A DNA stretch of 64,000 nucleotides from Candidatus Nanoarchaeia archaeon (GCA_038874075.1 JAVZDD010000001.1:8701-72700); one strand, 5' to 3'. Numbered from the stretch's first letter, positions 1,584 through 29,490 are shown. Program-made: numbers and translations. The notes: generated from the letters alone by a model not told the origin.

Positions 1584-1588
1584 TTCAG

Positions 1589-1861
1589 ATGGTAAAAGAA
1601 GATGAAGAAGCAAAAGAAGAAAAGAAAGAGGAAAGCTTAGAGAAAGAAGGGGAGGAAAAGGTAAAAAAGGTCGAGAAGAAGGGTAAGAAAAAAAGAAAAA
1701 ATAGAAAGCCGAGTGAAAAGTGGAGGATGTACAGTATTTCTGGTGAGAAAGGTATTAAAAGGAAAAACAAGTCTTGTCCGAAGTGTGGCGAAGGTGTTTT
1801 CTTGGCAGAGCATAAGGACAGGTTCTCTTGTGGAAAATGTGGATACACAATTTTTAAGTAG
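1589..1861 (+). CDS. rps27ae: 30S ribosomal protein S27ae (C4 zinc ribbon) with K/E-rich N-terminal extension
   Basis: C-terminal [25 protein letters not shown] zinc ribbon typical of S27ae; ATG at 1589 preferred over GTG at 1580 that overlaps S24e stop. Confidence 0.8.
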
Positions 1862-1911
1862 TTTTCTATTCGTTTGATATCATTAATTTATAAAAAATGA
1901 AATACTAAAAA

Positions 1912-2895: not shown

Positions 2896-2896
2896 T

Positions 2897-3730: not shown

Positions 3731-3769
3731 ATTATTTATACAAAATTCTTAAATTATAAATTTATCTCA

Positions 3770-4945: not shown

Positions 4946-4979
4946 TTAAGAAATGTTTGATTATTTAAAAAACTTTTTA

Positions 4980-5465
4980 CTATAATTTTAATTTCTGGAA
5001 TTCTAATAGGTTGTGAATCGTTGCATTTGCATGACTTGTACCTAATGAGATGCACGGTATATAAACTGAAAGCTTCCTAAAAATATATGGTACTTTTCCG
5101 TATTTTTTATTGAATGATTTATCTATTATTCTTGATGTGGTGTAACCAAATGCAAATGTGCCTGCAAATTCTAGTGCAGCAAATAATGTCAACCCTGCAT
5201 GGAAGCCAAAATTTTGGATAAAGAAATTCACAAAGGGATTGAGCTCTTTAAATTCTCTTGAAAGCGCATGACCCATGTAAGTGGTTACATAGTCACTGGT
5301 CAAGTTAAATGTATAATAGCATGTGGAAATCGCCTCAAGAATTTCTTCTAAAAACTTTGCTTTTTTGTTACTTAATTTATCAACGAGGCATCTGTTGAGT
5401 TTGTCTTCTAAATTATTTAGCTTTTCCTTTGTTCTTCTACTAATTTTATTTATGCTATCAAACAT
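4980..5465 (-). CDS. Hypothetical protein
   Basis: 161 aa ORF in good coding context between two minus-strand genes; no recognisable motif. Confidence 0.3.
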   Translation of the reverse strand: MFDSINKISRRTKEKLNNLEDKLNRCLVDKLSNKKAKFLEEILEAISTCYYTFNLTSDYVTTYMGHALSREFKELNPFVNFFIQNFGFHAGLTLFAALEFAGTFAFGYTTSRIIDKSFNKKYGKVPYIFRKLSVYIPCISLGTSHANATIHNLLEFQKLKL

Positions 5466-5515
5466 AGAATCTGTGAGGTAATATACAATTATATTTTTTA
5501 CTAAATAGTGATAAA

Positions 5516-6340
5516 TTAACCTAAATATGACATTTTCACGTAAAAAGTTCTCGGAACTCTTTTTAGCACATGCTCAACCATTTTGTCATCGATTGGTCTT
5601 ATACCCTCATTTGCATAGAATCTACAAACTCGCTCGCAATTGACAAGTATCTCTCTTGGAATATATGAAGACAGGTGAAAAATCTTATTCAATGCTTCTT
5701 CGCTGAATGGGTTACTCTCTTCTTTGCTTTGCATTGAGTTTAAAATTCTCAGTTGGATCATTCTCGTTGCTTCATCACTCTGCATCGGTCTCAATGCATT
5801 TTCCCAAACAATTCTATTTCTAAACGCATCTTTAAAAGGTTTATGTGATTTTATCCGCTTCGTTGAAGCCATTATGATACTTGCACCTAGATGATCATGG
5901 AATGCTCTTAAAAAATGATAAACATTTTGATTGTTTACCAAATGTGCTTCATCAAGAAAAATGATTGGTCTTCTGTCGCCAAGCTTCATTTTTAAAAAAT
6001 TTAAGAATCCAATCCTCTCTGGTGTTCTTCTTAGAATAATATCTAGGATGTTTTGCTTACCGATCGTATTTGCAAACTCATATACTAGAGAATTCTCAGT
6101 ACTTATAACAGGATCAATGAATATCGTCGCATACTTTTTCTTGTCTAAAAGTTTTTGGAAATGTAAGAGTAATGAGCTCTTACCGCTACCAGGTGGTCCA
6201 AAAATGTTCATTGAATCTCCAGAAATTATAATTTCGTGAAGGTCTCTCTTTATGTCATCAAATCCAACAAAGATTTGAGGGTCAGCACTAATAATGAATG
6301 GATTGGATTTCCATCCATATCTAACGAACCATGTGTCCAT
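5516..6340 (-). CDS. AAA+/P-loop ATPase (archaeal ATPase family), divergent from the giant surface-protein gene
   Basis: 274 aa; Walker A GPPGSGKSSLL, Walker B IIFLDEAH; N-terminal W-x-NPF segment as in ExeA/TniB/ORC-like AAA+ proteins. Confidence 0.6.
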   Translation of the reverse strand: MDTWFVRYGWKSNPFIISADPQIFVGFDDIKRDLHEIIISGDSMNIFGPPGSGKSSLLLHFQKLLDKKKYATIFIDPVISTENSLVYEFANTIGKQNILDIILRRTPERIGFLNFLKMKLGDRRPIIFLDEAHLVNNQNVYHFLRAFHDHLGASIIMASTKRIKSHKPFKDAFRNRIVWENALRPMQSDEATRMIQLRILNSMQSKEESNPFSEEALNKIFHLSSYIPREILVNCERVCRFYANEGIRPIDDKMVEHVLKRVPRTFYVKMSYLG

Positions 6341-6485
6341 TTTTTTGCTTTTTAAACATAACTCTCATCTAATCATCCATTTGTCCTATCCAGTTATGAT
6401 TTTATATGCGATGTTAGTTTTTAACTTTGTCGGATGATGTTCTATATACAATGAATCATACAAAGTCCTTTATCGATAACTTTTT

Positions 6486-6506
6486 TATTTCTGAGTAGTA
6501 TTATAA
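6486..6506 (+). promoter_or_regulatory. Candidate archaeal TATA/BRE region upstream of the giant ORF (possibly leaderless transcript)
   Basis: ttttttatttc / tattataat AT-rich boxes 10-35 nt upstream of the ATG at 6517 in a 176-nt intergenic gap. Confidence 0.25.
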
Positions 6507-6516
6507 TGCTTATTAA

Positions 6517-9500
6517 ATGGTCAACATGAAGAGAGATAAAGCTTTTTATGTAGTGTTAGTCTTAGTTCTTTTTATATTTCTTTCCATCTCATTCACTAAT
6601 CAAATGATAGCTCAAATTCTACTTCTATTGGTTTTATCTAGTTTTATCTTCATCAGAGTCAATGTTATTCCAAACAAAAAAGCAATTTCAAGAGTGGTGC
6701 TCTATTTAATTGTGATCATTTTTTTCGTTTTCTATCAGTTTTACTTCTCAAGGCTCATTGACGTTGTTTTTGCTGCCACTGTATGGAATTTTGTTTCTCC
6801 AACACCCACAAATAATACTTGCACCACGCAAGGACCAATAAATGCAACTGTGATCGATGGAAGTCCAAGTCTATGTAAGTTGTACGTAAGCCAAAATCCA
6901 GGTTCCGGCTGGAGTATACATGAAATGAGCTTGACACTAGGCTCACCAAACTATTGTTATAACGGCACTTGGTGGCAGAGTGTTAGTAATGGGAGATGGT
7001 ATTACAAGGTCAACATGACGGATGTAAATGGAGTCTCAAGCTTTTCTAACGGTGATTATGAAAGGACATTCGTTTTAGATACTGCAAATCCATCTGTGAC
7101 AGCGAATCCAACCAAATATCCACCTGGGCAAACAAGAGCCAAGAATGGTGATAATGTCACGTTCAATGTAACTGTTATTGATTCTACGATTGCTCCTTGT
7201 GGTGTAAAAAATGTAACCGTACACTTGAGTCTTGGATTTAATTGTACTCAAGGTGAAATTTTGAATTTAATAAAATATGGTGCAACGGATTATTACGTTG
7301 GGAATTGTACTGTAGATGCAACAAATGAGGGTACATATTACCTTCCTGTATATGCATATGATAATGTTGATCACTTGAATGATAGCGTACAGGTGACAGT
7401 CTCAGTAGATTATACGCCACCAACTGTAACAATAACATCTCCCACGAACACACAATACAATACGAGTAGTATAAACCTAACATTCACTGCTAATGATAAC
7501 ATAGCGTCAACGATGACTTGTCAGAGGACTTTGGACGGAGTAACAACATTGATTGGTGCAGTAAACAATAATACTGAAAATACGACAATAATGAACCTAG
7601 AACCTGGAGTACATCAAGTAAATGTAACTTGTTGGGATGATGCTTACAACAATGGAACTTCTTCAACGATCACATTTGGGGTATGGCGTTATATTTACGC
7701 GAATGTGACGCGGAATCCGGAAGCGCCTGCAAATTTATCAAGAGTTCCTGGTTGCTCAATACCAACTTCAATTACGTGGAATGTGACAGATATAAAAGAT
7801 GAGTTTGATAACCCAATTAATGGAACTCTCTTGAATGTAACATGGCGTGGAAACACGGTATGGAATGGGAACATTTACACGTGGTGGAACAAAAGTTGGC
7901 AGAGAAGGAAACCAATCACAATTTCAAATGTTAACACCTCGGATCTAATCGATTATCAAGTCGTAATGAACATTACATATGATAATGATATGCAAAGCGA
8001 TTTTTCAGACATCAGATTTACTTGGTATAATAAAACAAGTGGTGTAGAAGTAGAAATACCATATTGGATTGAAAACAAATCTGATTCTAATTGGGTTTAT
8101 GTTTGGGTCAAAATACCTATCATTTATGCTAGTTCAAATACCACAATTTATGTTTATTATAAAAATACCACTCTCGTAAGTTCAAAAAGTAACGGTAGAG
8201 ATACATTTGATTTATTTGATGATTGGGAAAGCGGGATTGTAAACACAAGTTATTGGACTACTGGTGGTAGTGTTTCACCATATTGGATCACTCACACATC
8301 AACAAAATACCAGGGAAGCTATTCTTCTGGTAATAATGATATTGGAGATTTACAGATATCATGGATTAAAAAAAGTATTAATCTTTTGATGCCTGGAAAA
8401 TTGGAATTCTATTGGTCAGTTTCTTCAGAATCTTGCTGTGACTTCCTTTATTATTGTATAGACAATGATGGTTGTACGAGAACTTCTGGTTATATAAGTA
8501 GAATTGCTGGTACGGTGGGCTGGACATTTGTGAATTATAACTTGACAGCTGGCACCCACAGTATAAAGTTCGCGTATGAGAAAGATATAAGCGTATCCTA
8601 TGGTTCGGATACTGGGTGGATTGATTTTGTGAAAGTCAGGAAATATGTTTATCCTGAACCGACTAGTTCCATTGGGACAGAAGAGCAAATAGAAAATTTA
8701 AATCTTTTACCACTAAGTGGGGTGTTTGATATTCCCAATGATAACGTTCTTGGAGAAAGTGATGATTTCTTAAACATTACGATCACAAAACCATATTACT
8801 TTGCTTACACAAACAATTCTTCTGATTATCATATACAGGGCGTCCTGAATCAAAGTGGTTCGTTGATCTCATGGACACCAAGTGGAAGTGCAATAGATAA
8901 TTTTGAACCTTCTATTGAAGGAGGACCATCAGTCAGTGCTAGTTATTTGATAAGGGATGATTTGAGTGTAACCTTAACAGAAAATACACATTATATAAAA
9001 ACAAATTATGGAGATTGGAATGCAAGTGATAATAATGCTGGTGATACAATTATACCGAATACCACATTTACTGGTATAAATAATTACTGTGGTACTGTCA
9101 CGTTCTCAAAGAGCTATCTCGTGCATGGAAAGATAAGTGATATATCCAGCATTATCTGGTCTCCTTCTGGGAATAATATAGATAGATTTTATGGTGGAAG
9201 TTATGGTGGTCCAGATGTAAGCTATGGTAGCTTGGTAGTGATTGACAATAAAGGTAATGTGGTAGCACCAACGAATTACTCAGAAAATAAAATTGGAGAT
9301 TGGAATGCAAGTGATAATAATGCTGGTGATGTGATAATATCAAATTTAAATATCACATCAAAGCTCGATGCTGGTAGTTGTGGTACATTAAATTGTTATT
9401 GGCACGGTTATGTGAATCAAACAAAGAGCTATACTGTCTGGGCAAATTTAACAATTAAGAGTGTGGCACCGCCAAATGCTACAATTGTCTATAGATCAAA

Positions 9501-12500
9501 TTGTAATACGCCTTATAATGTAACTTTAAGAGTAAACTTAACTGATGATAAGGGTAACTTGGTTTCGGGAGCGAATACAATTATATATCATCCAAGTGGT
9601 ACATGCAGCGTGAATGATGAGAATAATGGATATTATAATTGTACCTATGATCCAAGCGATACGATAGTGCCTGGGCTCTATACATGGACAGCAGAGGCAA
9701 GTAAAAATTATTATTATAATACTGGTAATGCAACACTTTTGTATTTGGAAATCAGAGGTTGTTCTAACATTAACATTACCCAGCCATTAAATACTTCTTC
9801 CTTTAATCGATCACAAACAATGGATATTAAGGTTAACATAACGGATGAATTCAATCAACCAGTAAGCGATGTAGGCGTTACTTGTGAGCTCACAAAAGCA
9901 AATGGGGTGAAAGTTTATCCAAATTGTATTTACAATCTTTCATCATATCTTTGGGAAGCTAATTACACATTTGCAAATGATGATCCGGTTGGAATTTGGT
10001 ATTTGAAAGTGAATGTAAGTGGAAGTTATTCTTACGCTGAGAAAATATACGAAATCACTTTGTTCGGAAAGTTGAATGTTACAAGTGTCTTAACAAAAGA
10101 TAAAGTAGATAGGGGTTCTGATTGGGGGTATGGTACGATAGCATTGTTGAATGCAAGTATCAATGATGAGAGTGGCCCAGTAAGTGATGTATATGTAAAA
10201 TTTTATGCAAATGATAATTTCATTGGTGAAAACACGACAGATAGTAGTGGAATTGCAAGATTGTACTGGGATCCAGATGATAATTTAAATGTGGGTGCAT
10301 ACAAGATCGAGGTGGAAGCGTACAAGACTTATTATTATAATGATACAAGTAAAAGTTTGAACAATTATACAGATGTTTATGGCAAGTTATTTGTCAGAAA
10401 TGTTTCATCACCGGTAAATGTTGATAGAAAAAATAATTATGGTTATGGTACAATTGCGATTCTTGAGGTAAATGTGAGTGATGATTTATATGTTCCAATA
10501 AATGCATCAACAGTAGAATTTTACATTAATACTAGTGTTGTGGGAACAAACACAAGTGGTGTGAATGGATATTATAAATATAACTGGGATCCAGATAACA
10601 ATCTAAATCCTGGAATTTATGTTTTCTATGCAAATGCAAGAGATGTGCAATACTATCACAATTATACAGATACTGTACCTAATAGTACAATTACTGTTTG
10701 GGGTAAATTAAACATTACTTCTTTCGGATTTACTGATAAAGAAATTTACAGGATTGGAGAATCAACAGTTCTAAGCGTAAATGTGAGTGATGAAAATGAT
10801 GTTGCTGTAAATAATGCAATAGTTTCATTCGTAAGAGATTCAAGTATCATAAATGTGACCAACACTACAAATGGTTATGCAAGTTACACTTATGATCCAA
10901 GCGATACGATAACGCCAAACAACTATACTATGTATGTAAATGTGAGCAAGCAGTACTATTACAATGATTCAAAGCAAGATTGGCTTTTAATAAAAGGCAA
11001 GATAAATTTAACTATCATTTCGCCAAACACAGGTCAGAAGTTCTATAGAAATAATACAGTACAATTAAATTCAAATGTGACAGATGAAAATAATGTTGAA
11101 GTCTCTCCTGATTGGTCTGAATGGAAGAAGATATTTCCCACGCAAGAAGTGATTTCAAATCAACCCGATTATGATTGGAATATTCCATACAACTATCCAA
11201 AAGGATTGCTTTCAATACAATTTAATGCAACTAAAATGTACTATGATATTGTAGGTGCAATTCCAAGTGTTGACATTACAATATGGTCTAAAGCAAATGT
11301 CACAATATTAAACTCTCCTCAAGATTTGAATAGGGGAAACAATATAACAATTGTTGCAAGGGTTTCAGATCATTTCACGAATGAGAACTTGGGTGGTTAC
11401 GATATTGGTTGGTTTGTGAATGATGTTAATATAGCAAATTACACAACTGCCCCTGATGGAACTTCTTCTTATTATTGGATAACGAATTGTTCATATGATG
11501 TTGGTGTGAATTGGATAAATGCTACGATTGGAAATGATACAAGTAATTACATTGATGCTAACATAGCAAACAGTAAAATAGATATCCACTTAATTGGAAA
11601 CCTATCCACATCAATCATTTCACCTCATCTGGATTCACTCTACCATATAAATGATGTAATACAATTAAATTCAAGTACAATTGATGATTGTAACAATTAT
11701 GTCATACCAGTTGTTACATGGAGAAATGAAACAGATGTCATTCAAAGTGGTATAAATGCGACATGGACGATTCCGTTGACCTACAATAAGGGACCAACAA
11801 ATATCACTATTTATGCGAATAAAAGTTATTATTATAATGCAACAAATTCGACACGGATAATCATATATCGCTGGGTAAACATCACGGACTTAAACCCAAT
11901 AAATGTTACTTATCCTGTTGGAACAATCATAAACTTTACATGTTTTGTTAGAGATGCAAATCTTTCACTAGGAATCGAGAATTATCCTGTAAACTTCTAT
12001 AAAAATGGAGTACTTCAGAATGTTAGTTATACAAATACAAGTGGTCTCGCACTTTGGATATGGAACACAACGAATGAACTAAGTAACAATTACACAATAA
12101 AATGTAATATTACGGACAATGCAACGCTTTATTTAAATAAGAGCCACCCATATGAGCAGCAAGGTAATATCACGATTGAAAGAAGATTGTGGATTATAAA
12201 CATCTCAGTTGATAACAGAACGATTTATAGAAATGATACTTGGGCAATATTAAACAATCTACCATATGCCACAAATATTACGGTCGAGGTCTGGGATGCG
12301 GCAATAAATCCTGCTTCAAATGTAATCGTACATTTCTTCAATTCGACAAATGAAATGGGTAATTGTACTACAAATTCAGATGGTAAGTGCAGTGTCATAT
12401 TTAATCCACCTGATACAATCATTGTACAAAATTACACAATTTTAATTAATGCAACAAAGATAGGTAATGATCCATCTTTCACTGAAAATACAACAATTGA

Positions 12501-15500
12501 AATATTGGGTGTCTTAAGGATAAATGCGAGTAATTACCCAACAGGGTTGGATGTAAATTATGAAAATGAGACGATAGAGGCAACGATAGAGCATGATATT
12601 TTAATTACAGATGTGATTTTGAACATTACACTCCCAAATAGTACTGTTATCTCTTCCCAAATGCAATCAATGGGAAATAATAATTATGTATTAAATTATA
12701 CACCTAAAATAAATGGTACGCATTCTTACTTTGTTTATGCGATTGACGCATCTAACTTTTTGAATCAAAGTTCAACCGCTTATTTCACTGCTTATAGAAA
12801 TACAACACTTTCGACAAAGCATGCACCACAATTGATCACGATCACGAACATGACATACTTTAATACTCAGCAATTACAAGTAAGTTTGAATGTAACTAAC
12901 CTGGGCCCATCAAGTGCTTATTACACAAACCTAAGTGTACAAACACCAAGTGGTTGGATCTCTAATTACAATGGTAATTGTGGTTTAATAAAAGATGGAG
13001 AATCATGCCTAAGAACTGTTGATATTACAGTACCTTCAAATACTTCACCCGGTATTTATTATCTAAATTCAAATACAACATGGATGAATCCTGATAATAC
13101 ATATAGTTACATTACGAATGTTACAACAGTGAATGTAACTTCAAATCCATTGTTAAACATCTCACAGAATAGTATTGGGGTTGTTGTCCAGCACAATTCT
13201 TATAATATAACAATATTCACAGTTCAATCAATAGGCAATGACAATTTAAGTAACATTCAGTTTGATTGTTATACTGGAATTGTTTGTACAAATTTTAGTG
13301 TCTCTTTCTCACCTTCAAGTATTAGCTTTCTAGGAAGAGGAAATTCACAAGATGTAAATGTAAATGTAAGTGTGCCGCTTGGATTTGCAATGGGTAATTA
13401 TACTGGAATTATAAGGGCGAATGCGACAAGTAGTGTTTGTAATCCAAGTAGTAATTGTTGGGATGAAGTGGAGATAAATATAGAAGTACCACCATCATCG
13501 ACTTGGTATGCTGAAGAGAAGAACTTTTCATTAGCAAGAGTAAATACATCATCTACTGGATTTATTGGTAATATAACAATAAACAATACTGGAAACACAC
13601 CAATACAATTCACATGGGAAGCTTATGGAAACATTTCTTACATGCTCATCGGTGAAAATATCACAGTAGAAAATCAAACTGTAAAAAACATGACAATTAG
13701 TTATTCCATACCCCATACCCTAAACGATACAAACAATACACCAGCATTCTACGCTGGTGGAATAAGGATCATTGCAATAAATGGAGTTCCACAATCGATG
13801 AATTTCTCTGTTAACTTTAGCGTTTATGATACGTTTGCACCAAACATAAACAACTTTAGCTTAGATTCAAATTTCATTGATATAAATTATGGTGTACTTG
13901 GCATTACAGCAAATGTGACAGATAACGTTAAAGTACAATCTGTGTACGTGGAATTTAGTAGACCTGGGAAAAAGTTTAGCAATTTGATGACAAATGTATA
14001 CGATGACATTTATTACTATTCTTGTAAAGCAGATGGAAGTTGTATCGATGCACTTGGAATATGGAACATAAAAATTTCGACATTTGATACTGCAAATAAT
14101 CCTGAAAATCCACCCCCAGGCTATAATGTGAACAGTAGTGGGTATTTACAAGTAGAAGTTGTTGGAAATACAAGTGTAGATATCCTAACAATCCCTGTAA
14201 TAAATGTATCAAATATAACACAAGGTTACGTTTATGAGTTTAATATAACTCCAATATTCAACAACACATTCAAGGGAACTGCATTTTATTCAAATTTGTC
14301 ATTGAATATTAGTTACCCACTCACAATTGATAATGTAAGTACAAAAACAATTAATTTTGGTAATGTTTCAAGATACAGTGCAGTAAATCAGACACTTCTA
14401 GTAAAAATACCGTCTGGAACAGTACCTGGAACTTATCTAATTAACTACAACGCTAGTTGGATGAATGCAGATAATACTCATAATTCAAACATAAACCAAA
14501 CAACAATAAATGTGCTATCAAATCCATTACTGAATATCGTCGAAGATTATATTTTGACTACAATTGCACATGGTTCTTCTAATGCAACGACCTTCAATCT
14601 AAGTTCATATGGTAATGACAATTTAAGTAACATTGAGATAACATGTGTTTCAGGCACTGTATGTACCAATCCTTGCTTTGATGTTCTGTTTGATAAAAAT
14701 TACTTAAACTTGAGCGCTGGAAACAGTTCAATTGTTACAGTAAGTGTGAATGTGGGTTTGGGATGCAGTCCTGGTAATTATACTGGAATTATAAGGGCGA
14801 ATGCGACGAGTAGTGTTTGTAATCCAAGTAGTAATTGTTGGGATGAAGTGGAGATAAATGTAAGTGTCTTAACTTCACCAACATGGGGAATAACACCAAA
14901 TTACCTTTCTCAGATTGTTTATGATAACTCAAGTGGTAATTTAATTGACATATTGGTAAACAATACTGGTAATGTACAAATTAATTTATCAATCACACTT
15001 TCTGGTAATGCAACGACGCCAACACAATTAATTAATGTCACAGAAACAGATGTAAGCGTAGATAAGGTAAGTACAAAAAATGTGACGGTTACTTATGATA
15101 TTCCCAACAATCAAATACCGGGCATATATCAAGCAATTATAACCTTCACAAATACATCTTCTCCAGCAAATCCAACACAAGTAAACGTCACAATTTATAT
15201 TGATGTGAGGGATCCGTATTCTCCTACAATTTCAAATCCGAACCTATCAAAAACAGCACTTGAGGCAAACTTCGAATCTCTTACAATAAATGCAACCATT
15301 ACTGATAATGTTGCAATCTCAGAAGCTTGGGTAAATATCACATTACCAAATATGAGCAATAATATTATTTTTATGAACAATATTGGAGATAATCTATACA
15401 GCACTACATACAAACCACCAATTGGTGGAAGTTACGGTGTAACAATTTATGCAAATGATACATCAAATAACATTGCTTCTATGTATGCAGGCTCGTTTAA

Positions 15501-21105: not shown

Positions 21106-21110
21106 TAAGG

Positions 21111-22532
21111 ATGGAATTAAATTTACCTTTTTTGAAGAGGGAGGAAAAGGGAGAAAGCGAAGAGGAGAAAAGGAAAGATAGGGATAATAATAAAAAGGAG
21201 GAGGAAAAGAAGAAGAAATTGACTGAAGCAAAGACTGTGGGTGAGATGGCTGCAATCTTGCAGGAAATTCCAGTGGAAGATGAGGAAGTGAAAGAGGAAG
21301 AGAAAAGGGAAGAAAAAGCTGGCATAGAAATTGATCCAAAGCAATTGTTTATAGAAATTGAAAAAATGAAGGTTGAGATTGATGGAATAAAAGAAGATAA
21401 GACAAGAATTGAGGAAAAAATTGATAGATTCGTTGAGAGTATTGGTGAGCTTAGAAGTCTGTTATCACAAAGGGAAGTGTCATTCAAGGAACAGGAAATA
21501 AAGCTCAATAAATTAGTTGAAATTGTGGGTGAAATAGACCCAACAAAGTATGGCGTAGAGCTAAAAAAAATTGAAAAGGATGTTTCTATTCTACAAGCAA
21601 GAATAGAAAAATTGGAAAGAATAAGTGTTGATTTAGTTAAAGACTTACAATCGCTACGGGATATCTTGGATAAAGTGAAGGACATCTCTACTATAATGGG
21701 AATGAATAGGGAATTAAGTGAAAAATTAGCGAAGATTGAGGATATTGGAAGTAAAGTGGAAAGAGATACAAATAAAGTTGAAAAAATGTACGCTGAAATT
21801 GATAAAAAAATTATGGATATACCGATGCTAAAAGAAAAAAATGAGAAGTTGGATGGACTTTTAAAGGAGCTTTTGATGAGTGTTGATGAAATTAAAATCA
21901 GATTAGATGCTTGTATAAGTAAAGATGACCTTGATTCATTAAGAGAAAGTATGAGGGAAGAAACGAGAGTACAAGTCGAAGATTTAAGGAAAGAGATTGA
22001 GGAAATGAAAATATCAAAACCTGTCGAAGAAAAAATCGAAGAGATTAAGAAATTTCCAAGTGAAAGTGAGATCGAGGAATTAAAGAGGGAGAGGGAAGAA
22101 ATAATCAGGTTTTTGAGCGCGCTTGAAGATGAATACAGGGAAGCCACAATCTCTGAGAAGAGTTATCAAGAAGCAAAAGAAAAAAACACGGTAAGATTGC
22201 ATCAAATTGAAAAGAGATTGAAGGAAATAAAGGAGATGGAAGAACAGATGGAAATTGAGAAGCAAATATTTACTGCGAAAAAAGCAATTGATGAGATAAA
22301 TCGGGTGAGTGAAGAGTTAAATAAGAAACTTACTGATATTGAGAAAAAATTAACAAGTGTTGATTTACTTGTATCTGACATCCAGAACATTAAAAATAAA
22401 TTAACGCAGTTGGAGGAAAGCGATAAAAAAATTATAAGTGATAGCACAGCATTATCAAATCAATTTAATCAAATAAAATCGATCTTTGAAAAAAGACTAA
22501 AAGAAATGTCAAAAATTGTGGAAGAGTTATAG
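21111..22532 (+). CDS. Long coiled-coil protein (E/K-rich), immediately downstream of the giant gene
   Basis: ~474 aa dominated by heptad-like E/K/L/I repeats, no TM; ATG at 21111 preferred over GTG at 21102 that overlaps the giant gene's stop. Confidence 0.6.
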   Translation: MELNLPFLKREEKGESEEEKRKDRDNNKKEEEKKKKLTEAKTVGEMAAILQEIPVEDEEVKEEEKREEKAGIEIDPKQLFIEIEKMKVEIDGIKEDKTRIEEKIDRFVESIGELRSLLSQREVSFKEQEIKLNKLVEIVGEIDPTKYGVELKKIEKDVSILQARIEKLERISVDLVKDLQSLRDILDKVKDISTIMGMNRELSEKLAKIEDIGSKVERDTNKVEKMYAEIDKKIMDIPMLKEKNEKLDGLLKELLMSVDEIKIRLDACISKDDLDSLRESMREETRVQVEDLRKEIEEMKISKPVEEKIEEIKKFPSESEIEELKREREEIIRFLSALEDEYREATISEKSYQEAKEKNTVRLHQIEKRLKEIKEMEEQMEIEKQIFTAKKAIDEINRVSEELNKKLTDIEKKLTSVDLLVSDIQNIKNKLTQLEESDKKIISDSTALSNQFNQIKSIFEKRLKEMSKIVEEL

Positions 22533-22541
22533 TGATTTTTA

Positions 22542-25500
22542 ATGCTAAGATCATGGAAAAGATTGGTTATATTAGCGATATGGTGCTTATTCTTAATTAG
22601 TTTTTCAAAGGCTGAATGGTGGAATACTTCATTTCATTACAGAGTACCAGTTAATATAAGTACTGGAAACTATAACAGGACTGAATGGCCGATTGAGATA
22701 AGAATAAACTTTACACAATTAATTTATGATCTAAAGGGTAGATATGAGATATTTGATAATAATTCTATTCGTGTCATAGAATATGATTCAGATGGTTATG
22801 TAATAAATGATAACAACGGACTTGGAATCGTCTCACAATTTGACGAAGATGAAGATTACGATGCAACTTATAATGCTGTTGGTGAATTGGTCTTTCTATT
22901 AAATGGAACAACACCTGCTAATACCACCAGGTACTTTTACATTTATTTTGATACAATGGAAAATCAAAAACAACCTCCAAGCTACCAGACAAATTTGACA
23001 TATGTGTGGGATGATGAAGAATTTAATGTGAATAACTCAATTTACAGACTTTGGATTGATACGCTTAGAAACGATAATACATCCGGAATATATAAAGTAA
23101 ATTTTACAGATGGTAGACTGCTCACCGAAATTGCGCCAAGCGGAAGAACGCTTGAGTATGTTAGTTATTGGAATTCAACAAACCAATTCATGTATAACCT
23201 TTCCCACCAAATGAAAATTTTGTATGCAGGACCGGTAAGAATTGTTGTAGAACAGTTGGGAAATGAATCACTTTGGAACTCTAATGTTCAAACAAACCAA
23301 ACAAAATTAAGGAAGAAGTATGTCTTCTATGAGAAAAATCAGTGGATAAGGATAAATGAAACATTAAGTAATGTGCATACGACAGATATAGATAGGTGTT
23401 CGAACGATCCAACATATATACCTGGTGCTCCTGGAACAAGTGATTATATATACGCACTTGCGATTGACGCGAGGAGAGGAAATTTCTATGGAAATGCATA
23501 CGTAATAAATGATTGGGTATCTGTCTTTAATTCAAGTACTGCTGTTGGTATGGGTGTAATACTTTTATATAATTCAACACCAAACTATTTTGTAGACTAT
23601 AGTGACACTTGGGGTAGGATTGGAGTACAGTTGGACAATACAACAATTCCAATTAATGAAAGCATTTCTTTCTCTGCTATTTTGTATTTTAATAACATTT
23701 CTTCGCATAGCCCAATTGAAGAATTGAGGAATAGAGTATTTGCTCCTGTTTCCATTTCAATGGGCAATGCAAGCGCATGGTATATAAACATCACAACGAT
23801 AACTAATCACGACGTTTACAATCGAAAAGAAATGGTAAGTATAATTGCAAATGTCACTTCTGATCCTTGGAACCTTGTAAACTATGTAAATGCTACGCTT
23901 GATTTAAATTCTCTTTTAATGCAACTTACTTATGCTGGATTTAAGTATTATACTGGTAATTACACGTTTGCAAACAACGATACGACGGGTGTTTGGAACA
24001 TTACAACAATTGCTTACGATTCATCTTGGCAATTTTTAAATCAATCTTCAAAATTGATAAACCTAACAGATATTTACAACATGAACTTGACGATAAGAAA
24101 CAAGTATGGACCGATCTCAAGAAAGTTGATTACTGATGTGGGTATAAAAAATTATAGAAATGATACAAACATTGTTGGTATTCCGCAGTCAAATTTCAGT
24201 TGTAATTTAACAATTTTAGAATTTTCTGAAATCGGAAATGGCTTATACAACCTAAATTTTACTGCTCCAATTGAAATCGGTAATTATACATTATTCTGTA
24301 ATATAAATTTCAACGGAAACGTTGGCAATTCAACTGACAGCTATATTACAGAAGAAAATAAGACGCAAGTGAGTATTGAACTTTTACCAGACAATATCAC
24401 AGCCACAAATATCACTTCAACGAATTCACAGATTTTTGAGATGAATTTAACAGCAATTAACCTCAGAAATGGTACGGCATACAAAGCTAACATCACGATT
24501 TCTCTACCAACAAATTGGAGTGCAACGCAAACATTTTTCAATTGTGGTGATATTGCACCGAGTAACAATTGCACTATATATTTCAATGTGACGATTCCAA
24601 GTAAGACCCATTCTGGAAATTATGTAGTAAATGCGACGATTGCTTGGATGAATCCTGATGGATCAATAAATCAAACGAGTGACTTTTCGAATGTAAATGT
24701 TACATCGAACATTACTCTCTATATTCCTGAAAATGAACTAATTGCAGTGGTTGAGCATGGGAGAAATATGCAGATTGGAAACTTTACCTTAAATTCGCTT
24801 GGCAATGATCCTGTATCAAATATTAGTTTTTCATATCAAATTGCTGAAAACATATCCATCATCTTCACACCAAGTGATATTTCTTATTTGGATTCTGGAG
24901 AATCTATTGTTGTATTTGTAAACGTTTCTGTTCCGGCTGGCTACGCACCTGGAAATTACATAGGAAACATCACAATAGATACCGAAAACGATGGAAGCAA
25001 AACATTGTTATTGAACATAGATGTGCCATTGAACAGAACTTGGACAAGGATCCCAAGCGCATGTTATAAATATATAGCTGCACCTGTGGGTTTTGCATGC
25101 AATATCACAATAAATAACACAGGAAACGCTGAATTAAATTTTACCATACATCCAAATGCGACTTCCGATTCAATGGTAAATCAAACATGGCCGAATGTGA
25201 CGAGCATCTTCTTAGAAAAACAGACTTCTTATGTGCTGCCAATCTTTTATAATATCACTGGATTAAACAATGGAACATTTCAAACGACATATACAATAAC
25301 AGCAAACCAATCGGATGCAATTCCACAAAATTTAACAACGATCGTTAATATCACAATTTCACTTGGTCCTGAAATAAACATCACAATTTATCCAAGTTTA
25401 ACAGAACAGATGAGTGATATCGTAATAAATGCGAGTTTATATGATAGGTCTTATACTGGGATATCTTGGGTAAAAATAAATGTGACGAGACCCAATGGAA

Positions 25501-27680
25501 CGATAGATACAACAGAAATGATCCTTGTGAATTCAAGTGGTGATTTCTCAAACTGGACGATCACATATCCCCATAACTGGGGTTCTACATTGTTGAGGGG
25601 AAGATATGATGTGATAGTATACTCAATGGACAACACGGGTGCAATTAACAATGTGACTGGAAACTTCACAATACATGCAAACTTATCGATAATAATGAGG
25701 ACTGGAGCTAGTTCATATTTCCAAGGCGAAAATGGCATTATAAGATACAATGTATACGACTCAAATCAAATACCACTACAAAATGTGAGTGTTTGGATAA
25801 ATATTACAGATCCTGAAGGTAATCGATTGCAAATAATACCTTCCTCTCCATATATCACAAATTCAAACGGTACACTGGATTATTTGCCTCAATTTGAAAT
25901 CACTTCGGATGCGAAGCCTGGAAATTATACTTTAAGTTCATATTCCTCATTCTTTGACCCCATCACAAACACAAGTACAAACAAGATGAATTCAACAATC
26001 TTCTTCGTTTATCCGGTGCTTAGTGCTGATTTCATCACTGTGATCAATTGGTTTCCCAACAATTTGATGCGTTTTATAATATCTACCTATGAAAGAGGCA
26101 TACCCGCTGATCCTGAACAAATGAATTTGGTTGTTTATGACCCAAATTTGGTTGTATATATAAATGCTTCTTCGCTCAATAACTTTACAAGAAGGAGTGT
26201 TGGGTCTTACATTTTTGCGTACATGATGCCATCAAGTCCACCATTGGGACAATACACTGCCTTTCTGAATGTATCAAAAGATGGATTCAGGATTGAGAAA
26301 ACAATTGTCTTCAACGTGGTTCAGGGTCCCCAGTTGATTTTGTATGATATCATATTGATGCTCTTAAAGTCAGAGGTAAATCAAAGTGAAAATCTACCCT
26401 TTGAACTCACGATCATAAACAAAGGTAATGTAAATCAAGATGTTTATGTTGATTATTGGATAAGTACGAGCCCTCTTGGGATACCTTGTAGCAATTGCTG
26501 GGTTGCAAAAAATGCAGATGTTGTATTTGTACCGGTAAATTCGAGTGTCACGTTAAGTAGAAGTGCACCAATTTATTCAACACAAGCTCCAGGTACTTAT
26601 TATTTAAACACAAATGTGACTTATGGAATCAATTTTACTGATTCAAAGACGATCCAACAATCAAAGAGTTTTATTGTTAGAGGAGCCCAGCCAACGAATG
26701 TAACACCAATTACGAACATTACACCTCTCTTGATCATTCCAAATCCAAGAATAAGCATCATTGGTTATCCATCAGTTATTGATATTGAGAAAGGATGGAC
26801 AAAATATGTAAGTGTTGAAATTAAGAATGTTGGTAATACAAATCTAAATAATATTTCACTTCAGATTGCCGGAATTCCTTTTTCATGGTTTGAAATAACA
26901 CCAAGCTTAATTGGCATCTTGTATCCAGAAAATTCAACCACATTTTTGATAAAAATTTCTCCTCCAAGTGATACTGAAACGGCTGAATTCAACGTTACAT
27001 TGATAGTCACATCTGACTTGGCAAGTGATAGTAAAAGATTTGTTTTGGGTGTTTTTTCCACTTTACAAGAGATGTTAAAGAGACAGATAAGTAGATTATG
27101 GGAACAATATAATCTGGTGAGGGGAAAAGCGGGTGTTGCTTCAAGCGAAGGAAAAAATGTTACTGCTGTACTTGATCTATTAAACCAGGCAAAGATGGCG
27201 CTTGAGAATGCTGAGAACTATTTGAACATGAAGATGTACGATGAATGCATCGCTTCGATTGGAAGAGCTAGAGATTTGATAGATAAGGCTGAGCAAGCAC
27301 TTTTAATTGCTCCTGTCATACGTGTCATTCCGGAGAAACCAGTTGAAGTATTACCAAACTGGATTCCATACATATTTTCGTTCTTGTCACTACTCATTTT
27401 AATTATTGTTTTAACGATGATCATATTTTATTTATTAAAGAGAAAAAGAGAGGAAGAGATAAGACCTAGCATTGAAGAGATAAAAAGGGTTAAGGAAGTG
27501 ATTGAAAGGGAACCAAAAGATATACTTGAGAGAAAAAGGGATGCGATCAAAGAAGCATTAAAAGTGATTGAAAGGGAGCATAGGATGGGTCTATTATCAA
27601 CTGAGAGTTATGGTGAATTGAAAAGAAAGAATGAGGAGAAGCTAGCAATTATTGAAAGAAAACTTAAAGGTGAATATTGA
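22542..27680 (+). CDS. Second giant surface protein (1712 aa) with signal peptide, N-terminal DUF2341-like domain, the shared A/B/C module, Ig-like repeats, a C-terminal TM helix and a cytoplasmic coiled-coil tail
   Basis: Signal peptide MLRSWKRLVILAIWCLFLISFSKA; WWNTSFHYRVPVNIS...EWPIEIRINF (DUF2341-like); N-x-S/T sequons throughout; module with TIAWMNPDGS and LGNDPVSNISF; TM WIPYIFSFLSLLILIIVLTMIIFYLL (27361-27440) then KRKREEE... coiled coil. Confidence 0.8.
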   Translation: MLRSWKRLVILAIWCLFLISFSKAEWWNTSFHYRVPVNISTGNYNRTEWPIEIRINFTQLIYDLKGRYEIFDNNSIRVIEYDSDGYVINDNNGLGIVSQFDEDEDYDATYNAVGELVFLLNGTTPANTTRYFYIYFDTMENQKQPPSYQTNLTYVWDDEEFNVNNSIYRLWIDTLRNDNTSGIYKVNFTDGRLLTEIAPSGRTLEYVSYWNSTNQFMYNLSHQMKILYAGPVRIVVEQLGNESLWNSNVQTNQTKLRKKYVFYEKNQWIRINETLSNVHTTDIDRCSNDPTYIPGAPGTSDYIYALAIDARRGNFYGNAYVINDWVSVFNSSTAVGMGVILLYNSTPNYFVDYSDTWGRIGVQLDNTTIPINESISFSAILYFNNISSHSPIEELRNRVFAPVSISMGNASAWYINITTITNHDVYNRKEMVSIIANVTSDPWNLVNYVNATLDLNSLLMQLTYAGFKYYTGNYTFANNDTTGVWNITTIAYDSSWQFLNQSSKLINLTDIYNMNLTIRNKYGPISRKLITDVGIKNYRNDTNIVGIPQSNFSCNLTILEFSEIGNGLYNLNFTAPIEIGNYTLFCNINFNGNVGNSTDSYITEENKTQVSIELLPDNITATNITSTNSQIFEMNLTAINLRNGTAYKANITISLPTNWSATQTFFNCGDIAPSNNCTIYFNVTIPSKTHSGNYVVNATIAWMNPDGSINQTSDFSNVNVTSNITLYIPENELIAVVEHGRNMQIGNFTLNSLGNDPVSNISFSYQIAENISIIFTPSDISYLDSGESIVVFVNVSVPAGYAPGNYIGNITIDTENDGSKTLLLNIDVPLNRTWTRIPSACYKYIAAPVGFACNITINNTGNAELNFTIHPNATSDSMVNQTWPNVTSIFLEKQTSYVLPIFYNITGLNNGTFQTTYTITANQSDAIPQNLTTIVNITISLGPEINITIYPSLTEQMSDIVINASLYDRSYTGISWVKINVTRPNGTIDTTEMILVNSSGDFSNWTITYPHNWGSTLLRGRYDVIVYSMDNTGAINNVTGNFTIHANLSIIMRTGASSYFQGENGIIRYNVYDSNQIPLQNVSVWINITDPEGNRLQIIPSSPYITNSNGTLDYLPQFEITSDAKPGNYTLSSYSSFFDPITNTSTNKMNSTIFFVYPVLSADFITVINWFPNNLMRFIISTYERGIPADPEQMNLVVYDPNLVVYINASSLNNFTRRSVGSYIFAYMMPSSPPLGQYTAFLNVSKDGFRIEKTIVFNVVQGPQLILYDIILMLLKSEVNQSENLPFELTIINKGNVNQDVYVDYWISTSPLGIPCSNCWVAKNADVVFVPVNSSVTLSRSAPIYSTQAPGTYYLNTNVTYGINFTDSKTIQQSKSFIVRGAQPTNVTPITNITPLLIIPNPRISIIGYPSVIDIEKGWTKYVSVEIKNVGNTNLNNISLQIAGIPFSWFEITPSLIGILYPENSTTFLIKISPPSDTETAEFNVTLIVTSDLASDSKRFVLGVFSTLQEMLKRQISRLWEQYNLVRGKAGVASSEGKNVTAVLDLLNQAKMALENAENYLNMKMYDECIASIGRARDLIDKAEQALLIAPVIRVIPEKPVEVLPNWIPYIFSFLSLLILIIVLTMIIFYLLKRKREEEIRPSIEEIKRVKEVIEREPKDILERKRDAIKEALKVIEREHRMGLLSTESYGELKRKNEEKLAIIERKLKGEY

Positions 27681-27693
27681 TTTAGGTGAGCAA

Positions 27694-28404
27694 ATGGTAA
27701 GGATAATAGGTGTGATATCTGGTAAGGGTGGAGTTGGTAAGACAACGGTCGTTGCTAATCTTGGACTAGCGCTTACTACAAAATTCAATAAAGAAGTGAT
27801 AATCATCGATTGTAACATTACAACATCTCATTTGGGTCTATACTTTGGTTTACATAGCGTGACAACGACATTAAACAATGTATTAAGGGGAGAAGCGATC
27901 ATTGAGGATGCAATTTATATGCATGAAAGTGGATTAAAAATCGTTCCTGCCTCTTTGGCAGCACATGATTTGATTGGTGTTGACATCATCATGCTTGAAA
28001 AAACATTGGAAAGATTATTCGGAAAGGCTGATTTTGTATTATTGGATTCTGCGCCTGGTCTTGGTAGGGAGGCATATGGTACAATAATTGCGAGCAAAGA
28101 AGTAATAATGGTCACGATTCCATATTCACCAGCAATAATTGATTTAATCAGATGTAATCAAGTGATCAAGGAGCTTGGTCCAAGGGCCCTTGGCATCGTA
28201 TTGAACATGGTCACTAGGGACAGATATGAGCTAACGGAGGAGGAAGTAAGTAATATCGTTGGGTTACCTGTGATCGGATCGATACCATATGATAAAAACA
28301 TACTGAAATCCCTTGCATTGAGAACACCTTTACTTAACTATAAACCAAAATCTAGAGCAAGTAAAGAGTTCATAAAACTTGCGAATAGGATTTTAGAACT
28401 ATAA
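27694..28404 (+). CDS. minD: MinD/ParA-family (SIMIBI) ATPase
   Basis: Deviant Walker A GKGGVGKTT near the N-terminus (MVRIIGVISGKGGVGKTTVVANLG), Walker B FVLLDSAPG; ATG at 27694 has a GGTGA Shine-Dalgarno-like motif 7 nt upstream, and the in-frame extension to 27652 overlaps the upstream gene. Confidence 0.85.
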   Translation: MVRIIGVISGKGGVGKTTVVANLGLALTTKFNKEVIIIDCNITTSHLGLYFGLHSVTTTLNNVLRGEAIIEDAIYMHESGLKIVPASLAAHDLIGVDIIMLEKTLERLFGKADFVLLDSAPGLGREAYGTIIASKEVIMVTIPYSPAIIDLIRCNQVIKELGPRALGIVLNMVTRDRYELTEEEVSNIVGLPVIGSIPYDKNILKSLALRTPLLNYKPKSRASKEFIKLANRILEL

Positions 28405-29490
28405 TCTCATTAATTCATCTTTTATTTTCTTTGCCTCATCTTCGAACATCTTCTGTAAGTTACTTACCTGTTCTCCTGTCTTTGAAATTTTTGTGTTTAA
28501 TTCATTTATTTTATCTGTGATCAATGTTATCTGCTGATTGAAATTCAAAATTTTCTCTTCATTTGCGGAGATCCTCTTGTTAATTTTGTCTATATCGTTT
28601 CCAAGTCTCTCAATTATTTCAGAAAACTTCTTGCCGTAATCCCTCATTTCGCTTTCCGTCTCCCCAATCTTCTGCACCGAAGCTTTTTGCTTCTCAATCG
28701 CCCCTTTCAATTCATCTATGTCCTTCCTTATGGAATCAAGCTGATCTGACACAAGTGAGAAATTAGATTGAAAATTCTTAAATAAATCTGCAATCTTTGC
28801 TTTACTCACTTCCTCTATGTGTTTTTGTAATTCTGTCTCAAATTTTGATGTCTCACTCTTCATTTCTTCTACTAATTTTTTTGCAATTGAAACTAATTCC
28901 TTCTCCACACGTTCCTTAACTGCATTCTTTATCCTTTCTTCCTTAAATTTGAAAATTTTTTTCAAATCCAATATTTCTTCATTTATTTTTTCAATTGCTC
29001 TTTTAGATTGTTTGGCTTCGTCTTGTAGTGTTGTGAGCGTCTCCTCAACCTTCAAAACTCTGTCCTGAACTTTTCTAATTTCTGTATGGGTATTTTTATA
29101 CTCATCGTCGCTTGCTTTCTTTATTTCGTTTATGAGCTTCTCTATATCTTCAAAACTTTTTTCTGTGGTAATTGCTTCTGGCTTTCTTTCTATTGGTATC
29201 ACTCCTTCTTGTTGTTGGACTTTCCTATTAAGAAGTTTTCTTGATATTGCATCAAGTTGGGAAGAAATTTGATTTATTTTTTCTGACTGCATGTTTGATG
29301 CATTTTTCAATTGTTGAATCTCTGGGAGTGAGGATAATGAATTCTCAATCTTCAATAATCTTTCATTCATCGCTGTTATTTGATTTCTTACTTCATCTAT
29401 CTCCTTCTGCCTCAAAGATTTTAACTTTCTCCTGAACTTCTCTTCTATTTTTTCATATTCCTTGATCCATTCTGGAATTTCTTCTTCCAT
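28399..29490 (-). CDS. Coiled-coil protein (E/K/Q-rich), convergent to minD
   Basis: 363 aa of near-continuous heptad-like repeat, no TM, no catalytic motif. Confidence 0.5.
   Translation of the reverse strand: MEEEIPEWIKEYEKIEEKFRRKLKSLRQKEIDEVRNQITAMNERLLKIENSLSSLPEIQQLKNASNMQSEKINQISSQLDAISRKLLNRKVQQQEGVIPIERKPEAITTEKSFEDIEKLINEIKKASDDEYKNTHTEIRKVQDRVLKVEETLTTLQDEAKQSKRAIEKINEEILDLKKIFKFKEERIKNAVKERVEKELVSIAKKLVEEMKSETSKFETELQKHIEEVSKAKIADLFKNFQSNFSLVSDQLDSIRKDIDELKGAIEKQKASVQKIGETESEMRDYGKKFSEIIERLGNDIDKINKRISANEEKILNFNQQITLITDKINELNTKISKTGEQVSNLQKMFEDEAKKIKDELMRL

Follow-up and report, generated by a model that had tools for sequence, protein, structure and literature searches.

A SPEARE-type giant surface protein with a HerA/FtsK-superfamily ATPase and its conserved gene partners in a DPANN archaeon

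The locus and its two surface proteins

The present analysis concerns a locus at positions 5516-29490 of a 64,000-nt stretch of DNA from a Candidatus Nanoarchaeia archaeon (the whole stretch is hereafter called the window). Four genes on the + strand of this locus encode, in order, a giant SPEARE-type surface protein ending in a cytoplasmic ATPase, a coiled-coil partner protein, a second surface protein and an archaeal MinD-type ATPase. Calling of open reading frames (ORFs) on the window found all six ORFs of the locus where the first-pass annotation of this DNA had placed them, with two start codons corrected. The six genes had been presented there as one super-locus. This grouping held for the four + strand genes, which are kept together across genomes, and is unsupported for the two outer genes. 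The locus is better described as a four-gene module set between two unproven neighbours and housekeeping genes.

The giant gene (6517-21105, +) encodes 4862 amino acids (aa) and was recognised by its ORF and by Pfam matches to DUF2341, NPCBM_assoc, Ig-like domains, DUF87 and HerA_C. In public gene calls its start is M30 (4833 aa), and an identical sequence with the giant gene is present in three NCBI assemblies (GCA_025920725.1, GCA_025920735.1 and GCA_025920765.1). The coiled-coil partner gene, supported by its ORF and by synteny, follows at 21111-22532 (+). Its product had been given as a 474-aa protein whose start overlaps the stop of the giant gene. That overlap, of 4 nt, exists only if translation starts at GTG 21102 (476 aa); ATG 21111, the start in the public annotation, gives 473 aa and leaves a 5-nt gap. 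The second surface protein (1712 aa) is encoded at 22542-27680 (+) and MinD (236 aa) at 27694-28404 (+). The claimed overlap between these two genes likewise depends on the start codon. It holds only for TTG 27652, which is not recorded in three NCBI assemblies; the recorded start is ATG 27694, with a 13-nt gap. Because the gaps between the four genes are at most 13 nt and GGAG/GGTGA-like motifs lie upstream of the internal starts, it is plausible that the four + strand genes share one transcript.

Both surface proteins have the predicted topology that had been described for them earlier: a transmembrane helix and then the DUF87/HerA domain in the giant protein, and a transmembrane helix and cytoplasmic tail of its own in the 1712-aa protein. 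In the giant protein, a Kyte-Doolittle scan placed two or three hydrophobic helices at aa 6-81 (6517-6759, +), which are predicted to be a signal anchor or a signal peptide. The extracellular region that follows (6760-19878, +; defined by Pfam, alignment and sequon count) reaches to about aa 4455. In Pfam this ectodomain of about 4370-4400 aa contains a DUF2341 domain (aa 495-582, nt 7999-8262, +), an MG2 match, several Ig-like matches and repeated NPCBM_assoc/NEW3 beta-sandwich domains. Alignment of the protein with itself and with its paralogue resolved four tandem modules of about 430-460 aa each, with NEW3/CARDB-like beta-sandwich domains, at aa ~2048-3800 (nt 12658-17916, +). A membrane-proximal pair of beta-sandwich domains (aa ~4182-4438; 19060-19830, +; columns 100-330 of the family alignment) precedes the single transmembrane helix (aa ~4455-4486; 19879-19974, +), which was found by hydrophobicity and corresponds to helix 33-62 of an AlphaFold2 (AF2) model. 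The chain continues into the cytoplasmic P-loop ATPase (20014-20886, +), which contains the sequence VVYDEVH, and ends in a helical tail of about 70 aa in three helices (20896-21102, +; placed by alignment; AF2 helices 355-422). Protease, nuclease and toxin-like domains were not found in the giant protein by Pfam and NCBIfam. Laminin_G had no match in the giant ectodomain even at E <= 1, a result of Pfam alone, the region after DUF2341 being without a structural model.

The giant gene also contains a direct repeat of 114 nt, at 13393-13506 and 14773-14886, whose copies are 89% identical and lie 1380 nt apart. They encode the identical peptide RANATSSVCNPSSNCWDEVEIN in two adjacent modules of the protein. 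This repeat suggests a recent duplication of a module within the gene, or gene conversion.

The ectodomain of the 1712-aa protein is made of the same repeat module as the giant protein, at 36% identity. A hydrophobicity scan gave it a signal-like N-terminus, a transmembrane helix at aa 1603-1635 (nt 27348-27446, +) and a charged tail of 77 aa. The number of N-x-S/T sequons was then compared with shuffled sequences: the giant ectodomain (aa 82-4455) has 256, against 100.6 +/- 8.4 in the shuffles, and the 1712-aa ectodomain has 95, against 30.8 +/- 4.9. The cytoplasmic parts of both proteins contain zero or one. Since the sequons are enriched in the outer parts and nearly missing from the cytoplasmic parts, the predicted topology is supported, and both ectodomains are predicted to be heavily N-glycosylated.

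These features bear on an explanation in which the two glycoproteins are the main, S-layer-like coat of the cell, and the ATPase, the coiled-coil protein and MinD anchor, organise or insert this coat, for example during growth or division. Both proteins are predicted to be membrane-anchored, and they are very large, consist of repeated beta-sandwich modules and have an extremely high number of sequons; the module is a conserved single locus in small genomes; and MinD-family proteins organise envelope-associated structures in archaea. However, the module carries a HerA/FtsK-type motor with invariant catalytic residues, and we know of no role of such a motor in S-layer anchoring. Across the family described below, the outer part can be as short as about 250 aa or longer than 15,000 aa, and it diverges fast: the ectodomains are only 28-34% identical between loci, whereas the ATPases are 53-64% identical. 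This variation suits host-specific adhesion better than a lattice. In addition, Candidatus Nanohalobium constans reportedly lacks the giant protein and yet has an envelope (PMC10266531). We consider it unlikely that the locus encodes a coat of this kind.

The ATPase, its family and its kinship to SPEARE proteins

The ATPase of the giant protein scored above the Pfam cut-offs for both DUF87 (36.1 bits) and HerA_C (23.7 bits). Its Walker A motif GGTGAGKS (nt 20158-20181, +) and the D-E pair of its Walker B motif (nt 20548-20553, +) are invariant across 14 aligned sequences of the family. In a search of the PDB with a 14-member profile, HerA came first (E ~4e-9), with FtsK and the coupling proteins far behind. 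The AF2 model of the region from the transmembrane helix through the ATPase to the tail had a predicted local distance difference test score (pLDDT) of 80.8. Foldseek matched this model best to Sulfolobus HerA (4d2i, E 2.6e-9), then to Sir2-HerA and HerA-NurA and, further down, to TcpA, FtsK, EccC and VirB4, with template-modelling scores (TM-scores) of about 0.4-0.47. The model has no HAS-barrel, and the transmembrane helix stands in its place at the N-terminal side of the core. NurA was not found in the neighbourhood of the locus by Pfam and by inspection of the neighbouring genes, and the NCBIfam HerA model gave 21.5 bits against a cut-off of 800. HerA proper, the end-resection helicase of the HerA-NurA pair, was rejected on these three grounds. 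Because the ATPase matches HerA but lacks the HAS-barrel and has a transmembrane helix instead, sequence and model together place it as a HerA/FtsK-superfamily motor in a subfamily of its own.

The RecA-like core with Walker A and B motifs is shared with the known translocases of this superfamily (HerA-NurA, FtsK/SpoIIIE, TrwB/TcpA, EccC/EssC), and FtsK, the coupling proteins and EccC provide precedents for a membrane-anchored translocase ring. Unlike these systems, the window ATPase is without HAS-barrel, NurA partner and FtsK gamma domain, it resembles them only at the low TM-scores given above, and its type of motor is uniquely fused to, or encoded beside, a giant ectodomain. As in Ced and type IV secretion, the ATPase is membrane-associated and belongs to the HerA/VirB4 group, and it has a weak NCBIfam match to CedD. 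This score, however, is 28 bits against a cut-off of 600, and no CedA-type polytopic membrane proteins were found in the locus, so that Ced DNA import was rejected.

Defence-system HerA proteins are among the closest solved structures, and there are weak PADLOC matches to HerA (best E 6.8e-15). The locus could be read from these as an anti-virus membrane sensor-effector akin to Sir2-HerA or DUF4297-HerA. The PADLOC matches, however, are partial and confined to the generic ATPase core, and no effector domain (Sir2, nuclease or DUF4297) was found; on these points a HerA-based anti-phage system was rejected. The known defence HerA proteins are moreover soluble and carry a HAS-barrel where a transmembrane helix is found here, and the gene lies in a housekeeping neighbourhood rather than in a variable island. 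We give hardly any credence to a defence function.

The family of this ATPase is represented in 1.84 billion cluster representatives by 372 sequences at E <= 1e-30 and by only 523 at 1e-10, and is therefore sharply bounded. Many members are 2000-7878 aa long with the ATPase match at the extreme C-terminus. The conserved unit of the family consists of the two membrane-proximal beta-sandwich domains, the transmembrane helix, the ATPase and the helical tail; the beta-sandwich pair is kept also in the short members of 550-730 aa (BLASTP to the short forms of loci L085, L086 and L088). The tail is conserved family-wide, with G402, M406 and A407 nearly invariant and Y410 invariant in the numbering of the alignment. 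Two members, P0327 and P0115, do not end at the helical tail and carry several hundred residues after the ATPase, including TPR repeats.

SPEARE proteins were described in nanohaloarchaea by Hamm 2019 (PMC6642349) as mostly extracytoplasmic proteins that reach 8553 aa, with a C-terminal transmembrane helix and a conserved cytoplasmic part that was read as a type III restriction enzyme. Their name refers to serine protease and endonuclease activities, and they were defined by criteria that include at least one laminin-G domain and other adhesion domains (PMC6642349). In the re-annotation by Reva 2023 (PMC10266531), the protein became a giant adhesin that bears a coiled-coil tip and an ATPase of VirB4/TraG-like type, with no nuclease found, and a second ATPase gene was noted downstream. 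Since these authors dispute the protease and nuclease domains in the original SPEARE proteins, the protease/endonuclease feature may not define the family. The SPEARE protein of Candidatus Nanohaloarchaeum antarcticus was detected by proteomics (PMC6642349), and cryo-electron tomography showed cytoplasmic bridges in a nanohaloarchaeon-host pair that carries such a gene (PMC11001535).

The window ATPase is 43% identical (E 1e-122) to AQV86_02330 of Nanohaloarchaea SG9, a listed SPEARE protein, and 46% identical to a 623-aa ATPase of Candidatus Nanohalococcus occultus. In the latter genome (CP104395.1), a giant gene of 9409 aa lies immediately upstream of the 623-aa ATPase gene, and its product ends in a transmembrane helix and an ATPase that is 43% identical to that of the window. 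A giant ending in an ATPase and followed by a short ATPase paralogue was also found at a 15,808-aa gene in Woesearchaeota and at a 10,543-aa gene on a metagenome contig. The helical tail of the giant protein corresponds to the coiled-coil tip described in PMC10266531, and relatives carry PF04851 ResIII matches. In architecture, the protein of 4862 aa is mostly extracytoplasmic, with a transmembrane helix near the C-terminus and a cytoplasmic C-terminal region, and its intracellular domain is homologous to the nanohaloarchaeal counterparts. Because the transmembrane helix, ATPase and helical tail are 43-46% identical to ATPases of nanohaloarchaeal SPEARE loci, the giant protein is, by sequence, a member of the published SPEARE-type family in a lineage-specific version. 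The novelty first implied for this centrepiece of the locus was thus overstated, as such proteins have been in the literature since 2019 (PMC6642349) and were re-annotated in 2023 (PMC10266531).

The giant gene calls that adjoin short transmembrane-ATPase genes, of 15,808 aa (L086, Woesearchaeota; 1-8004), 10,543 aa (L087; 1-8000) and 9,544 aa (L085; 16511-17869), rank among the largest ORFs recorded in archaea. In L087 the giant gene stops one base ahead of the start of the ATPase gene.

The likeness to the nanohaloarchaeal proteins extends over an N-terminal signal, an adhesin-like ectodomain of several thousand residues, a single transmembrane helix towards the C-terminus, a cytoplasmic P-loop ATPase and a helical tip, and the nanohaloarchaeal ATPase genes are also trailed by a homologue of the coiled-coil gene. 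There are also differences. After the coiled-coil gene, the window has the ATPase-less second surface protein and MinD, whereas Nanohaloarchaea have a second, short transmembrane-ATPase paralogue. The window giant, with its ectodomain of DUF2341 and NEW3-type modules, has no laminin-G, protease or toxin-like domain detected by Pfam. Finally, the window lineage ('Ca. Parvarchaeota' in NCBI) belongs to a group without homologues according to Hamm 2019 (PMC6642349), who reported none in Nanoarchaeota or Parvarchaeota. SPEARE-type homologues in such lineages were found here in the window, in Candidatus Haiyanarchaeum (L006) and in two metagenome-assembled genomes (MAGs) labelled 'Nanoarchaeota' (L035 and L083). 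Loci of the family were also present in MAGs labelled Heimdallarchaeota (L005, a 3.5-kb contig) and Altiarchaeota (L013). These are likely to be mis-binned DPANN contigs or cases of transfer between symbiont and host lineages; Altiarchaeales are also listed for SPEARE by Hamm 2019 (PMC6642349).

Reva 2023 (PMC10266531) presented a type IV secretion-like 'straw', in which the ATPase is of the VirB4/TraG type and the giant protein is a conduit that injects protein effectors into the host. The ATPase does belong to the superfamily of VirB4 and the coupling proteins, and TcpA, EccC and VirB4 are among its structural matches. Relatives show faint Pfam matches to TrwB_AAD_bind, T4SS-DNA_transf and AAA_10, and a second, paralogous ATPase follows the giant gene in nanohaloarchaea, in Woesearchaeota and on metagenome contig L087. 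However, the best match in both sequence and fold is HerA, not VirB4 or VirD4; the N-terminal domain of VirB4 (PF03135) was not found in the window giant protein; no homologue of VirB3, VirB6, VirB8 or pilin was found in the locus; and a tandem beta-sandwich ectodomain is the architecture of a stalk or adhesin, not of a known conduit. As an identity for the locus, a VirB4/VirD4 type IV secretion system was rejected, with PF03135 missing and no component of such a system among the window genes. An injecting straw seems to us an improbable explanation of the locus.

Conservation of the module and its cytoplasmic partners

Relatives were collected by scanning one genome per species with the ATPase alignment, which gave at least 459, and the best 80 loci were analysed, each with 10 kb of upstream flank. 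They are mostly from Aenigmatarchaeota, with some from Micrarchaeota, Woese-, Pace- and Nanoarchaeota. The upstream flank is taken up completely by the ATPase-bearing ORF in 41 loci, where this ORF therefore encodes at least 3700 aa; truly small forms have 724-772 aa. Of the 75 informative loci, 58 have a homologue of the coiled-coil gene that begins no more than 100 nt from the end of the ATPase gene, and 73 have one within 3 kb. Such a homologue lies downstream of the ATPase genes in the nanohaloarchaeal, Woesearchaeota and metagenome (L087) loci as well. Among the 51 loci with at least 9 kb of downstream sequence, 37 have a homologue of the second surface protein and 21 have MinD inside or beside the module, each time together with the second surface protein. 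In some of these loci MinD follows the second surface protein, and in others it stands between that gene and the coiled-coil gene; it is kept in differing gene orders, and its linkage has therefore survived rearrangement. This second, transmembrane-anchored paralogous ectodomain protein and MinD are linked in Aenigmatarchaeota and in the window lineage. Two loci (L047 and L064) contain the whole module in miniature, with an ATPase protein of 724-730 aa, a coiled-coil protein of 503-526 aa, a second protein of 325-341 aa and MinD of 239-252 aa. The order giant transmembrane ATPase, coiled-coil protein, second surface protein and MinD thus recurs in many DPANN genomes, which bears out the earlier grouping of these genes on the point of conserved synteny.

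Additional genes interrupt the module in some relatives. In some Aenigmatarchaeota (L018, L019, L020, L045 and L063), the coiled-coil and second surface-protein genes are separated by a cassette that encodes PAS-domain proteins, a response-regulator receiver protein and two proteins without annotation, which hints at signal-dependent control. In L014, L032, L057, L075, L016, L038 and others, two accessory genes recur in the interval from MinD (or the coiled-coil gene) to the second surface-protein gene: a polytopic membrane protein of about 154 aa with an HExxH motif (14 loci) and a small Arf/NOG1-like GTPase (5 loci). A family of about 220 aa with no Pfam match stands between the second surface-protein gene and MinD in 10 loci (L009-L011, L015, L017, L023, L031, L034, L036 and L070). 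The ~154-aa membrane protein, the GTPase and the ~220-aa family are absent from the window.

The coiled-coil partner begins with a charged, disordered segment, followed by a conserved core (aa 81-280; nt 21351-21950, +) and a second conserved block at aa 318-372 (nt 22062-22226, +). In the core, E84, E109, G112, E113 and R115 are invariant and P144 is nearly so. Its AF2 model is all-helical, with a pLDDT of 70 and a predicted TM-score (pTM) of 0.25, and the second block was modelled as a confident helix-loop-helix (pLDDT about 90). In 31 loci, a hidden Markov model (HMM) of this helical-hairpin block matches the second surface protein over its final ~50 residues (lowest E 3e-12). In the window 1712-aa protein the match lies at aa 1661-1709 (nt 27522-27668, +; E 2.5e-6), and across the whole 64-kb window the HMM matches only the coiled-coil gene and the 1712-aa gene. 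In one relative (L013, 5378-6736, +), a 452-aa MinD carries a C-terminal extension with two copies of the same motif. Since the motif is common to the scaffold protein and the membrane-protein tail, and is fused to MinD in one genome, no other sequence feature hints as strongly that these products come together in the cytoplasm.

In L013 a second, ordinary MinD directly follows the motif-fused one. The motif consensus, LLxxLEEQYkeGxISkexYexlKxkN, suggested a SHOCT domain, and this identity was rejected because four motif-bearing segments gave no PF09851 match at E <= 10. A fusion of the ATPase with the coiled-coil protein was likewise rejected: HMMs of the core and of the motif had no match in the family representatives, and the C-terminal extensions were TPR or nothing recognisable.

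The last gene of the module encodes an archaeal MinD, as judged from its TIGR01969 score of 212.3 bits (cut-off 201.75) and its deviant Walker A motif KGGVGKTT. In archaea, MinD4 positions archaella and chemosensory arrays. To our knowledge, a surface-protein complex is not a described MinD cargo. The locus resembles ParA/MinD positioning systems with coiled-coil partners, such as PomXYZ of Myxococcus (PMC7993993), in that a MinD-family ATPase is encoded together with long coiled-coil proteins, one relative even fusing the partner motif to MinD. It differs from them in that MinD is linked in only about 40% of the informative loci.

The combination of an FtsK/HerA-type ATPase, MinD and a coiled-coil protein also resembles bacterial division-site machinery, and the coiled-coil proteins have weak matches to SMC, Rad50 and EzrA. 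One could suppose that DNA at the division site is cleared or partitioned by a membrane-bound, FtsK-like pump together with an SMC-like coiled-coil protein and MinD, the ectodomain being incidental. These matches, however, are far below the cut-offs and typical of coiled-coil composition, and no FtsK gamma or other DNA-binding domain was found by Pfam. A role in segregation or division would leave unexplained the obligatory fusion or adjacency to giant adhesin-like ectodomains and the restriction of the family to DPANN-type genomes, and MinD is absent from many versions. Such a role is very unlikely in our judgement.

The genes at both ends of the locus were examined in the same set of 80 loci. 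The divergent gene (5516-6340, -) encodes a P-loop NTPase of the AAA_22/ATPase_2 type (274 aa; Pfam and NCBIfam), with a Pfam AAA_22 score of 33.5 bits against a cut-off of 27. An adjacent homologue was found in only one of the 80 loci (L029), where it lies at the opposite end of the module and is 36% identical with distinctive N- and C-terminal motifs; in most related loci, though, the giant ORF overruns the 10-kb flank and the DNA upstream of it is outside the view of this count. Searches of two metagenome scans yielded nothing new or only the organism of L029 again. On present evidence this NTPase is a neighbour, and its membership in the module is unsupported. The convergent coiled-coil gene (28399-29490, -; 363 aa) overlaps the stop of MinD by 6 nt. 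It had been counted as a member of the locus, a claim that is not supported: no homologue was found in any of the 80 loci, and its scores of 10-14 bits against the core profile of the partner protein are at the level of coiled-coil composition. It too is a neighbour on present evidence.

The flanking genes beyond these two are housekeeping genes, encoding Kae1, a SIS-domain protein, a DRG-type GTPase, a RIO/Bud32-type kinase, ribosomal proteins, a GAN/RecJ-like protein and CysRS. Elsewhere in the window, a third very large ORF (55326-63671, -; 2781 aa from a GTG start, possibly longer) has Big_13, Big_3_2 and MAM-like Ig domains, without an ATPase and without the shared tail motif. A DUF2207 membrane protein (52194-54023, +) and a group comprising a B12-binding radical SAM protein, an amidohydrolase and a radical SAM/SPASM protein (42545-46488, -) are apparently unrelated to the locus.

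A candidate assembly for host contact

We know of no characterised system with the composition of this locus. On balance, we lean towards the view that its core is a lineage-specific SPEARE locus encoding a membrane-anchored translocase with adhesive stalks, scaffolded and positioned from the cytoplasm. The four-gene module probably serves host attachment and material exchange. Because the gene order is conserved, a cytoplasmic motif is shared and this motif is fused to MinD in one relative, a localised envelope-spanning assembly is a reasonable reading of the sequences.

HerA, FtsK, the coupling proteins and EccC work as hexameric rings, with DNA or polypeptide threaded through the pore at their centre. 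Like these relatives, the ATPase would form a membrane-anchored hexamer, probably a hexameric translocase, so that six long, glycosylated adhesive stalks would be shown to the host cell. If its N-terminal segment stays uncleaved, the giant protein would have the topology of a coupling protein (transmembrane helix, loop, transmembrane helix, ATPase), its loop being vastly enlarged. Beneath the hexamer, the shared hairpin motif would join the coiled-coil protein and the second surface protein's tail into a cytoplasmic scaffold. MinD-family proteins are membrane-binding ATP-dimers that position large assemblies, and MinD would cluster the complex at one site, most plausibly the site of host contact, where ATP hydrolysis would drive a macromolecule over the symbiont membrane. 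Nucleic acid is the favoured substrate, since the nearest relatives (HerA, FtsK and the coupling proteins) act as DNA pumps and nucleotide synthesis is generally missing from DPANN archaea; protein export is the main rival.

Several points weigh against this adhesive, positioned translocase. One transmembrane helix per subunit, with an N-terminal anchor that is possibly cleaved, may be too little for a channel, and no nuclease, pilus, pore-forming or other secretion component was found to be encoded in the locus by Pfam, NCBIfam and the neighbouring genes. The oligomeric state and every protein-protein contact are inferred, and co-transcription of the four genes is only plausible. The coiled-coil model gave nothing below E = 1 in Foldseek against the PDB, the matches being generic hairpins (ESCRT-I, CdvA, spectrin). 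MinD and the second surface protein are absent from the Woesearchaeota, Nanohaloarchaeota and Micrarchaeota versions, and the positioning step is therefore not universal. The adhesive translocase joins the invariant motor, the fast-evolving ectodomain of variable size and the restriction to DPANN-type genomes better than a coat, a division or a defence function does.

A wider proposal, which we put forward only tentatively and regard as rather doubtful, is that the family represents a DPANN-wide envelope-spanning translocation machine at the host contact, a new FtsK/HerA-driven class that carries its own adhesin. It would be made up of the HerA-like ATPase, which is anchored by its transmembrane helix and carries the ectodomain, and of the universal coiled-coil partner; some lineages would add the second tail-motif protein and MinD. 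The motor would be coupling-protein-like, with an extracellular loop grown into a host-binding stalk, and the scaffold of MinD and coiled-coil protein would assemble the machine at the host contact. There it would form or feed cytoplasmic bridges that supply the symbiont with DNA, nucleotides or proteins.

In the searchable literature (subscription-only papers lay outside the search), the coiled-coil partner, the second surface protein, the tail motif and MinD are not mentioned with SPEARE-type genes. A study of Parvarchaeales-related DPANN from Tengchong hot springs does not discuss the locus (PMC10134863). Hamm 2024 (PMC11291902) reported type IV pilus loci of DPANN that encode coiled-coil proteins; near the window locus, no pilus genes were found. 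Relative to this literature, the near-universal coiled-coil partner, the shared tail motif, its fusion to MinD in one genome and the link of the locus to MinD appear to be new.

Attachment of DPANN archaea to their hosts and transport across the two envelopes is an open question, and a molecular machine for it has yet to be assigned. The foremost candidates are the giant SPEARE proteins, which have so far been treated almost only as single proteins in halophiles. The present analysis adds that their core with the motor forms a sharply delimited family throughout DPANN, one that extends to a hot-spring lineage of the Parvarchaeota type, that it has a near-universal coiled-coil partner, and that in Aenigmatarchaeota and the window lineage it is joined by a second surface protein and MinD, with a shared cytoplasmic motif. 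The outcome is a concrete parts list and a set of specific interaction hypotheses for the problem of how DPANN archaea engage their hosts.

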